Part shown: positions 3,526 through 5,480 of the stretch, piece after piece
How positions within the stretch are numbered: the stretch's first letter is position 1
Layout of the letters: each line of letters begins with the position of its first letter
Origin: Plasmodiophora brassicae
Lineage: Eukaryota
Reading direction: 5' to 3'
Assembly (NCBI GenBank): GCA_036867785.1
Contig: CP145426.1
Location: 124,001 to 188,000 of the forward strand
DNA length: 64,000 nt
Notes under the pieces: generated by a model
Databases searched by the model: none
Seen by the model: only the letters and a program-made list of their open reading frames with translations
What the model was told of the DNA's origin: nothing
Translations under genes and position numbers: made by a program

Positions 3526-5480
3526 TTAGTAAATGGGTTCGATATAGAAGGCGGCGTCGATGTTGTTTTCCATTTGGGTCTCAATATTCCTGAAAGTCAG
3601 TCTGTGGTTGGTCCGCATCGACGTGTGCGCCCTGCAGAGCAGAGCAGTGATAACGACGACGACGGCGCATATTGCAGCAGCACCTGAGACCAGGAACAGC
3701 GGTCGCGTATTCGCATACTCCATCAACTGGTCGGTCAACGACGCTGCATGGTCCCTGATTGCACCCGCATGACTCGCAGAGGTAGTAACAGCAGGCCTTT
3801 GTGCAGGGGACGCCTGAGAGGCATGTGTAGACCGGACCGCCAACTAGGCCACGAGAGCAGCTGCTCTCGTGGCCTAGTTGGCGGTCTGGTCTACACATGT
3901 CTGGTCAACGGGCGCCGTCTGGAGCCTGCAGCGCTGGAAGAAATTCCTCGAGTAACAGGCCGTTGTCGTGCCAATGATGAAGGTGTTCGACGCACAGATG
4001 CTCGGCGACGACTAGACGTTTTCATTTTCGCTGACTGGACGGCCTTGGACGGAGGTCGGCCAACGCTAGGCGTTGCTATCGGTGTGGACGAAGTTCCAGG
4101 TCGACGGTGTGTGGATACCGTTCTTGCTCCTGCTTGGCTGGCCTTAGACGAAGCACGGCGATTGACAGGCGATCTTTGAGCCGTCGACCAACGCGAGTAT
4201 GGGAGATGCGGAGATTTCGCAGAGGGCTGGGACGATGCAGGCGTGGGAATTGATGTTGCTCGAAGGGTCCTCAACAATGGAACACTACTGGACACCGGGG
4301 CGGGACGCTTCGAGGATATCGTCCTGGCAATCTGGTAGAATGCATCCCAAATGACCTGCGTCCTGTAGATCAACGTTGAATCGTTGAGGCGCGACCATTT
4401 CGCTGCGATCACAGCAGGTGTCTCTTGCGTAACGTTGACTTCAGCGTAAATTCCCCATTGACCAGCGTTCACTGTCTTGTAGGTCCAGGACGTGAAATGC
4501 CAGCCGCGCTGGCGGTACTGTTGTGTGAGCCAGTTCCAAGAGTCGGCGCCGTTCGTCTGGAATTCACCAACGTACAGCGGAGAGTTGTAGGTCTGCGGGA
4601 CCTTCGCGTAGGTCGAAAGGTCCTTCTGGAACGCGATCTGGTTCGCTGTGAAATTCGCCGACTGCATTGTGTACTGGTGCGGCCCATAAACGACGCTACG
4701 ATTCGTCCATCCGTTCTGGGTCGGCGAACTCGACATGACAGACTCGACGATGGCGATCCGAGTTGCATCCTGCTTCCATATTGCATCGCATAACATCTTC
4801 TGCAAGAAGTTGCCAGTCGAAGGATGCGGTTCGTTGATCGTGTCGAAGGCCGCCACGATGCCATTGCCTTTGAAGTGAGCGGCCACCTCGGTCCAAATGT
4901 CGACGGCCCATTGTTGTGCGTCGGAAGCGGCCATCGTCGAGATATAGCTGTAACTCTGCTGCTGGGTTCGCCACACGTGGAAGCAGAGTATAACATAAAT
5001 TCCTCGGGCACCCGCTTCTCGAACGACCCAGTCCAGTCTGCTGAAGTCGATGTTGCCAGACGAATCGCGTAACCAGGTGCCGTTCGCGGTTTGCAACGTC
5101 CGCCAGCTGAAGGGGACCCGAATGACGTTAACGCCCAGCTGCGACAAGGTGTCGAGGTCAATCGTTGTGAACCAATGGTCTTGCCAGATCTTAACCAGCG
5201 CATTGCTCTGGTCGACTCCGAACCGCGCTTCCATCGTTTCCTGGACGAACCGGGTCGGGTTCGGCTCCGTCACATCGGTGATGCCACACATCCATCCTTC
5301 GAAAACCAGCCACCCGCCAATGTTCGTCCCAAACAGGAGAACGGGATTTCCGAAACGGTCCACGATTGTGTTTCCCGCTGTGGACAGCCTGCTTAAGACC
5401 GGGTCAAGGCTCTTGGACGGTGAAGCGTTCCCGATTGTTACGCAGAAAAGCATGGCGACACGAATTTGAAAACGCCCCAT
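3526..5480 (-). CDS. GH5 glycoside hydrolase with signal peptide, Ser/Pro/Arg-rich linker and a C-terminal TM segment separated by a palindromic insertion
   Basis: Signal-like N-terminus, NIGGWLVFEGWM, IRVPFSW, acid/base INEP, nucleophile YVGEF. ORF stops at 3891 inside the palindrome; downstream frame 3825-3526 encodes hydrophobic helix LFLVSGAAAICAVVVVITALLC. Confidence 0.85.
3826..3895. mobile_element. 70-bp palindromic MITE-like element (TGTAGACC...GGTCTACA) with CATG target-site duplication
   Basis: Zero-spacer palindrome centred at 3860/3861 with one mismatch; CATG at 3822-3825 and 3896-3899; related half copy at 51120-51193. Confidence 0.8.

Follow-up and report, generated by a model that had tools for sequence, protein, structure and literature searches.

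The window analysed here was a stretch of 64,000 nucleotides of Plasmodiophora brassicae (contig CP145426.1, positions 124,001 to 188,000), and we focused on a palindromic element at 3826..3895 that interrupts a GH5 gene. The truncated GH5 coding frame occupied 3894..5480 on the minus strand and encoded 529 aa from the first ATG. The frame matched Pfam PF00150 (E 1.1e-21), with the catalytic NEP at residue 216 and GEF at residue 305, and its N-terminus was signal-peptide-like (MGRFQIRVAMLFCVTIGNA). The best solved relatives of the protein were a putative beta-xylosidase and a 1,3-beta-glucosidase. Likeness to relatives spanned 5438 to about 4323. Proteins P0002-P0006, the five closest relatives retrieved (44-48% identity), all terminated within a few residues of the latter position. 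Beyond it, the GH5 frame stayed open through an S/R/P/A/T-rich stretch of 143 codons (3894..4322, minus strand). It then ended with ...TRHV before a TAG at 3891..3893. This stop lay inside the element and came from its TGTAG end, which confirmed the claim of the original prediction that the element supplies the GH5 stop codon. With the GH5 frame free of stops from the end of the domain up to the element, translation of an unspliced message must end at this TAG. A 520-aa product ending there was called on four contigs, and no longer product, spliced or element-free, was found among the 52 matches in a search of 5.8 billion protein clusters. The evidence below made it probable that the element is an insertion that resembles a miniature inverted-repeat transposable element (MITE), consisting of two 35-nt ends fused head to head, which entered the 3' coding part of the GH5 gene and duplicated CATG.

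Structure and borders of the palindrome

The sequence of the element was read directly. On the plus strand, 3826-3895 consisted of two 35-nt arms, TGTAGACC...CAG and CTG...GGTCTACA, which met with no spacer. The arms were complementary at 34 of 35 positions, with a single mismatch at 3834 (G) versus 3887 (T). CATG stood on both sides, at 3822..3825 on the left and at 3896..3899 on the right, as the two copies of a putative 4-bp target-site duplication. The zero-spacer palindrome flanked by CATG that had originally been described was therefore borne out. Because CATG is self-complementary, the palindrome is formally 78 nt long, and a repeat finder gave arms of 3819-3861 and 3860-3902 that were 95% complementary. 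The two arm matches were reproduced in none of 100 shuffles, and the palindrome was beyond chance. Folding gave -88.2 kcal/mol for the element as RNA (z -12.2) and -50.3 kcal/mol as DNA (z -14.6). An Rfam scan yielded only matches resembling miRNA precursors, far below gathering scores; any perfect hairpin gives matches of this kind. The open translation of the element (residues 39-78 of the open reading frame (ORF) 3688-4176) was also searched at lengths of 89-286 aa, with one candidate and none scored. As expected of a MITE, the element was short (70 nt) and had no coding capacity, it carried terminal inverted repeats (TIRs), and a target-site duplication, CATG, was present on both sides in the one copy.

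Three readings of the borders were compared, namely 70 nt with a CATG duplication, 62 nt with a TA duplication as in pogo, and 78 nt with no duplication. The frames left after removal were scored with a codon model trained on eight long ORFs of the window. The 70-nt reading, in which 74 nt are removed, gave +17.7 to +20.8 bits over 99 codons with two training sets. The 62-nt reading, in which 64 nt are removed, gave a rejoined frame of -16.6 bits, and removal of the 78 nt gave -38.5 bits and three stops. In a leave-one-out calibration, 17.7 bits was reached by 88% of 324 in-frame windows and by none of 648 shifted-frame sense windows, and also by 15.5% of 972 antisense windows. If TG|TA|GACC were read as a TA duplication, TG would lie outside it, and this TG was conserved in all four unit starts of the repeat family in the window. 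All four read TGTAGACC and were preceded by A, T, G and G. A pogo or Tc1-mariner MITE with a TA duplication was rejected on the conserved outer TG and on the -16.6 bits of the frame after the 64-nt removal. The restored frame together with the TG conserved outside the would-be TA favoured the 4-nt reading over the removal of 64 or 78 nt. The 4-nt duplication was the best supported reading of the borders, and it rested on one complete copy.

The frame severed by the insertion ran over 99 codons at 3529..3825 on the minus strand and was closed by TAA at 3526-3528. Removal of the 74 nt joined ..TRH to ASQASP.. in 3825..3529, as had been predicted, and this frame contained a hydrophobic stretch of 22 residues, LFLVSGAAAICAVVVVITALL, with a Kyte-Doolittle mean of 2.68 over 19 residues. 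It corresponded to a predicted membrane helix at residues 43-64 of the 99 (3634..3699, minus strand), followed by a tail of 35 residues. Signal peptide, domain, stalk, helix and short tail in series formed a coherent layout of a type I membrane protein. The most coherent reading, which we infer from this layout, is that the protein formerly ran on through the helix.

Other models of the region after the GH5 domain were rejected. A decayed ricin-type lectin domain in frame C after GH5 was considered, and its three pieces had no Pfam match at E up to 10. The lectin idea was also contradicted by the relatives, which carry lectin domains N-terminally. Multi-intron models leading from GH5 to the tail, built by exhaustive one- and two-intron searches and by dynamic programming, gave contrived paths only. 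The best of them were contradicted by an RNA contig that was unspliced over 4156-4378. In the region 3894-4322 of the minus strand, another frame scored as coding in places, yet it had four stops. A tRNA-Gly gene (CCC) was located at 3028-3100 on the plus strand, with an ankyrin fragment on one side and the GH5 gene on the other. Its DNA depth was 2-3 times that of the flanks, and raised depth is expected for a multi-copy tRNA gene.

The repeat family and the sequencing runs

The window contained one other copy of the family. This second copy was partial, with one end only, and lay at 51118..51193 on the minus strand, in a repeat island. Its outer unit, TGTAGACCGGACCGCT (51193-51178), was separated by 17 nt from an inner unit. 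The inner unit and the 27 nt after it matched the GH5 arm (51160-51118) with 93% identity over 43 nt. The likeness ran through GAGAGTAGCTGCTCT and ended just past the fusion point of the GH5 arms. Further inward on the minus strand, at 51040-51117, the parent of this copy showed two further small hairpins after the arm-like part, with stems GATGCGCT/AGCGCATC and CAAAAAAG/CTTTTTTG, so the subterminal region of the parent was rich in hairpins.

Contigs of two DNA runs (X2 and X13) and two RNA runs (X15 and X17) were aligned to positions 1-10000 of the window. Summed contig depth at 3839 was 19361 in X2, where the flanks had about 240, and 18209 in X13, where the flanks had about 90. Depth at the arm was thus about 70-200 times that of the flanks in the two DNA runs. 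These sums are not copy numbers, and DNA of other organisms may contribute to them, so we conclude, cautiously, that the arm recurs many times, with about a hundred arm-equivalents as an order of magnitude. An extra C that is characteristic of the second copy was carried by 13 contigs in X2 and 9 in X13, and the remaining arm depth was without it, like the GH5 copy. Contigs with a match starting exactly at 3826 and with unlike preceding letters numbered 9, 6, 3 and 1 in the four runs. The likeness of the other family copies, seen on loose contig ends, stopped at 3826, which we cautiously took to be a repeat boundary. The arms belong to a multi-copy family. Family copies were also present in the RNA contigs of X15 at a summed depth of 1502, which indicated that at least some copies remain in RNA. 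The expectation of other copies was supported for the arm family by the second copy, the depth and the contigs at 3826. It was not supported for the complete 70-mer, of which no second fused copy was seen in the window or in the contigs of the four runs. Searches of public metagenome contigs with two patterns and of genome contigs for further copies gave 0 matches.

The two DNA runs also bore on the integrity of the assembly. X13 is an isolate other than X2, which is possibly the source of the window; in 8433-9947, X13 had 32 deviating letters and 14 gap letters relative to the window. In each of X2 and X13, one contig covered 3070-3853 and another covered 3866-6466, and both were single-copy. 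Both runs contained each junction of the element with unique DNA, and the arm variant at one junction differed from that at the other. In a chimera formed by folding back one end, the arms would be identical. The junctions with their own arm variants in a second isolate thus showed that the palindrome was no fold-back artefact. It had been suggested that raw reads might reveal such a chimera, and this was countered by both junctions and the same arm mismatch in the second isolate. A scar of local fold-back repair was also rejected, since the arms were family sequence found elsewhere and a 4-nt direct repeat was present. An empty allele had been proposed as a check, and none was found: no contig skipped the element in the four runs, of which the RNA runs had no single-copy cover at the element. 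Shares of sampled words were 0.97-1.00 in 14 DNA runs, and these shares decide neither the presence nor the absence of the element. X13 held 0.97 of 217 sampled words, and its single difference in this comparison was G>A at 3808.

Several repeats lay near the second copy. A fragment of a pogo-type DDE_1 transposase was identified with Pfam at 50236..50667 on the plus strand, 450 nt from the second copy, within a decayed repeat island that had its own inverted duplications. A link between this fragment and the palindrome family is unproven. An ORF beside the second copy was considered as a HIRAN-like partner gene, and it had no Pfam match at E up to 10. In the same island, a fold-back at 48804-48919 had 53-nt arms that were 94% complementary around a 10-nt spacer. 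Another, at 49933-50430, was a 137-nt inverted duplication at 99% that included part of the DDE_1 fragment. The ORF 49153-49827 gave a weak match to an IS1595 zinc ribbon. Outside the island, X13 differed from the window by 3 letters in 1-3057, compared with the 32 letters and 14 gap letters at the ankyrin-repeat gene at 8433-9947, which is a local hypervariable stretch.

Splicing at the element

The original prediction had also offered removal of the element as an intron. The candidate 83-nt intron lay at 3814..3896 on the minus strand (CAT|GTGTAG ... CCTCTCAG|GCG). A GT at 3896 and a CAG that ends at 3814 were indeed present, and removal of their 83 nt gave the tail frame, as had been claimed. 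The candidate is compatible with the sequence and goes no further than that. Within 35-200 nt, 57 GT..AG pairs enclosed the stop, and 14 of these entered the tail frame with no stop. A 53-nt pair (ending at 3844) was also among the frame-restoring pairs. Published intron sizes for P. brassicae average 60 bp (PMC4471660), with a median of 55 given elsewhere (PMC2483917). The 53-nt pair was nearer to this usual size than the 83-nt pair.

The RNA runs were recognised by a verified intron in the same region. X15 and X17 both carried a contig skipping 6696-6778, and neither DNA run did. The joint 6695>6779, seen in X15 and X17 only, indicated that both are RNA runs. This 83-nt GT..AG intron (minus strand, CAG|GTATGG...ATCACAG|A) joined the ORF 6767-7192 to the ankyrin ORF 5895-6782. 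RNA cover of the GH5 gene was confined to 4753-5021 and 4156-4378, at a depth of 2.5-3. No joint at the element was seen in any of the four runs, in which the RNA runs had no single-copy contigs over 3341-4155. Splicing at the element is unlikely, and the intron half of the original prediction is unsupported, though not refuted.

Some further observations on introns were made in the window. Donors were loose; GTATGG was verified by RNA, and GTGTGT, GTAGGA and GTCATC were placed through helicase motifs that we take to be conserved. A DEAH-box helicase gene at 53469-55889 on the plus strand had three short introns of 59, 55 and 51 nt, as judged from conserved motifs, and a gene for the spliceosomal helicase BRR2/SNRNP200 lay at 10693-19000 on the minus strand. 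A joint skipping 1608 nt (6303/7912) occurred in all four runs, DNA included. It reflects either sequence shared by the tandem ankyrin paralogues 5895-6782 and 7530-8522 or a deletion variant.

Interpretation of the insertion

We propose that a non-coding miniature DNA transposon inserted into the 3' coding part of the GH5 gene and duplicated the 4-nt CATG. Before the insertion, the protein would have had 99 more residues and would have run through the membrane helix. The unspliced message would now give a GH5 enzyme with signal peptide and stalk and without an anchor, probably released and not tethered. The element would not be spliced out efficiently. A 14-nt mini-palindrome, AGAGCAGCTGCTCT, may have been the site at which the fused form arose from a longer parent, either by deletion or when gap repair switched templates. 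The arms of the GH5 element met in the middle of AGAGCAGCTGCTCT, which was located at the fusion point in the parent-like end. A mini-palindrome has the same orientation in both ends and is thus a direct repeat between them, so that deletion or switching leaves two ends with no spacer. Birth of a MITE through microhomology is on record (PMC3814204). Either the fusion took place elsewhere and was followed by transposition, or a long element inserted and the fusion took place there. The weakest step concerns the enzyme, which might be a transposase that cuts TGT...ACA ends and makes 4-bp duplications in an integrase-like manner, as in Ginger. The insertion is real but ordinary transposon damage that truncates a gene, and the family of the element seems to be undescribed.

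Several observations weigh against this reading. Positions 3854-3865 were bridged by no single-copy contig in X2 or X13, although a contig break inside a palindrome is expected from graphs of 31-letter words. X13 lacked 2-5 more sampled words than its one single-nucleotide polymorphism explains. Taken together, the unbridged centre and this deficit mean that the 70-nt interior is vouched for by the window assembly only. Other organisms in the runs may have contributed DNA to the depth sums. The flanks of the other copies shared an ending like ...AT(A/C)TCT, which resembled the spacer before the inner unit of the second copy, and many of these copies may represent the inner of two units at one end, as that one does. 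In that case, the true outer terminus of the family is not secure. The length of the duplication was taken from a single complete copy, whose self-complementary CATG could belong to a 78-nt palindrome. The second copy adjoins the pogo-type DDE_1 fragment, and pogo makes TA duplications. Cover by single-copy RNA contigs was nil at 3341-4155, so splicing at the element was not visible either way. The 143-codon stretch scored like a shifted frame (-62 bits), with a GC content by codon position of 0.52/0.76/0.46 versus 0.52/0.46/0.70 in the GH5 domain. Composition can explain this score, because Ser, Pro, Thr, Ala and Arg codons have a middle G or C. Long spurious ORFs were common in the GC-rich window. 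The tail had no relatives; one weak match in several stretches (P0053, E 1.1e-5), probably compositional, was found among 1.84 billion representatives. That the protein was formerly anchored is not proven. The switch from an anchored to a secreted glucanase that had been envisaged thus stood as far as the frame rejoins to a helix, and it stays conjectural given a tail without relatives and odd codon usage upstream.

These points were weighed against three other explanations. The insertion may be real and the anchor may never have existed, in which case the GH5 protein ended near its domain, the open stretch is read-through or fast-evolving junk, the helix frame is nothing or a separate small gene, and the insertion changed only a dispensable tail. 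The ends of the five closest relatives near 4323, the -62 bits and low third-position GC of the 143-codon stretch (0.46 versus 0.70 in the domain), and the tail without homologues are consistent with this, and a 3n+2 removal restores a frame in one case out of three. However, no stop in the GH5 frame preceded the element and the RNA contig was unspliced over 4156-4378, so translation reaches the element. In addition, the signal peptide, domain, Ser/Thr/Pro-rich stalk, helix and short tail made a coherent type I layout, and the tail frame outscored all 648 shifted-frame windows. We regard this explanation as unlikely. A palindrome made by assembly or repair would be a collapsed longer element with inverted ends of 35 nt or more, an in-place deletion, or a fold-back scar at a broken transposon end. 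The centre at 3854-3865 without single-copy bridging, the word share of X13 below what one polymorphism explains, and the fold-backs at broken transposons in the window (48804-48919 and 49933-50430) point in this direction. On the other side, in two isolates each end adjoined unique sequence and had its own arm variant, and the arms were family sequence, not local. A 4-nt direct repeat and a coding frame restored by exact removal fit an insertion and not a scar from neighbouring DNA. An in-place deletion would still be a transposon insertion with an equal effect on the gene. This explanation appears very improbable.

It might also be that the element is removed as an intron, either the 83-nt one, which takes 9 nt of exon with it (GT 3896, AG 3814), or the 53-nt one (end 3844). 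Production of the anchored protein would then continue, and splicing versus retention would yield two isoforms; the event would be an intron gain of the introner kind. Both GT..AG pairs restored the tail frame, which is still open and scores as coding, and the RNA-verified intron of equal length (83 nt) lay 3 kb away (6778..6696). The loose donors of the window made a GTGTAG donor compatible. Introner families are on record that have TIRs and 4-bp duplications and in which the duplication provides one of the splice sites (PMC9860276), and here the G of GT comes from CATG. In contrast, no joint at the element was present in four of four runs, where RNA cover was nil, and the pair was not special among 14 equivalent ones of 57. 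The donor had no G at -1 and +5 and was paired inside the -88 kcal/mol stem, and no branch motif like YTNAC was near the acceptor, unlike in the three inferred helicase introns. Family copies were present in RNA contigs, the truncated product alone is on record, and an open tail is explicable by a young insertion. We consider removal as an intron quite doubtful. A bolder form holds that the palindrome family is an introner in a rhizarian parasite, with a donor GT created at the border of duplication and element by insertion beside a G, a perfect hairpin that joins the splice sites, and partial splicing that gives released and anchored glucanase; the chance of this seems slim. That such an introner would be an intron gain caught early, before the frame-neutral stage, is likewise hardly to be expected.

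Comparison with known systems was used to place the insertion. We classed the element as MITE-like, within a TIR family that is as yet unclassified. The Ginger/TDD label of the original prediction stays tentative: the TGTAG...CTACA ends and one 4-bp duplication agreed with it, and CATG is not a published target and no integrase partner was found. Ginger1 and Ginger2-TDD share TGTNR termini and 4-bp duplications with the element (PMC2836005), and TGTAG...CTACA conforms to the Ginger pattern TGTNR...YNACA. In our own comparison, RTATAY of Ginger2 and G-CATG-T here have a common R-NNNN-Y symmetry. The differences are that the arms here were 35 nt, versus published TIRs of 40-270 or 50-180 bp, and that the target was CATG, versus CCGG/CCGT or RTATAY (PMC2836005). 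Only one duplication was seen for the element. The TDD duplication is 5 bp, and autonomous Ginger copies encode a Gypsy-like integrase (PMC2836005). No integrase (rve-type) or intact partner was found among the 72 ORFs scanned of the 110 in the window with at least 170 aa. Made1 (MiHsmar1), of the human mariner Hsmar1, is similar in being a near-perfect palindrome of 80 bp, with TIRs of 37 + 37 bp around 6 bp, in forming a very stable hairpin when transcribed and in its many copies (PMC1784062). Made1 was born by internal deletion at microhomology (PMC3814204), a route similar to the one proposed here. In contrast to Made1, the element had no spacer and 35-nt arms, its 4-bp duplication was CATG and not TA, and its TGTAG ends were not mariner-like.

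Introners, such as those of Symbiodinium, are also short non-autonomous elements that have TIRs and sit, with a 4-bp duplication, in coding sequence, and one splice-site base could derive from the duplication as well (PMC9860276). They differ in that the candidate acceptor here would lie 9 nt beyond the duplication in the exon, so that three codons would be lost on splicing. Within the window, the one further copy sat in a repeat island. No introners were reported for Plasmodiophora in the literature searched, and the main text of a large introner survey names neither Rhizaria nor Plasmodiophora (PMC9860276). For another rhizarian, a paper reports no introner signal. A search for the species together with MITE showed no transposon paper among the 15 literature matches listed of 59, and the term MITE does not occur in the two genome papers checked.

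For the gene, these results mean that the annotated GH5 product hinges on how a gene finder treats the element: if it were called as an 83-nt GT..AG intron, the probable truncation of a secreted enzyme of the clubroot parasite would go unnoticed. If the element were spliced, for which the chance is small, it would bear on how new introns arise. For the family, a compact and apparently undescribed inverted repeat with roughly a hundred arm-equivalents could mark isolate lineages, and it could be a source of hairpin RNA. The fusion at a mini-palindrome common to both ends suggests how a long element could turn into a two-end MITE, and this route can be tested.

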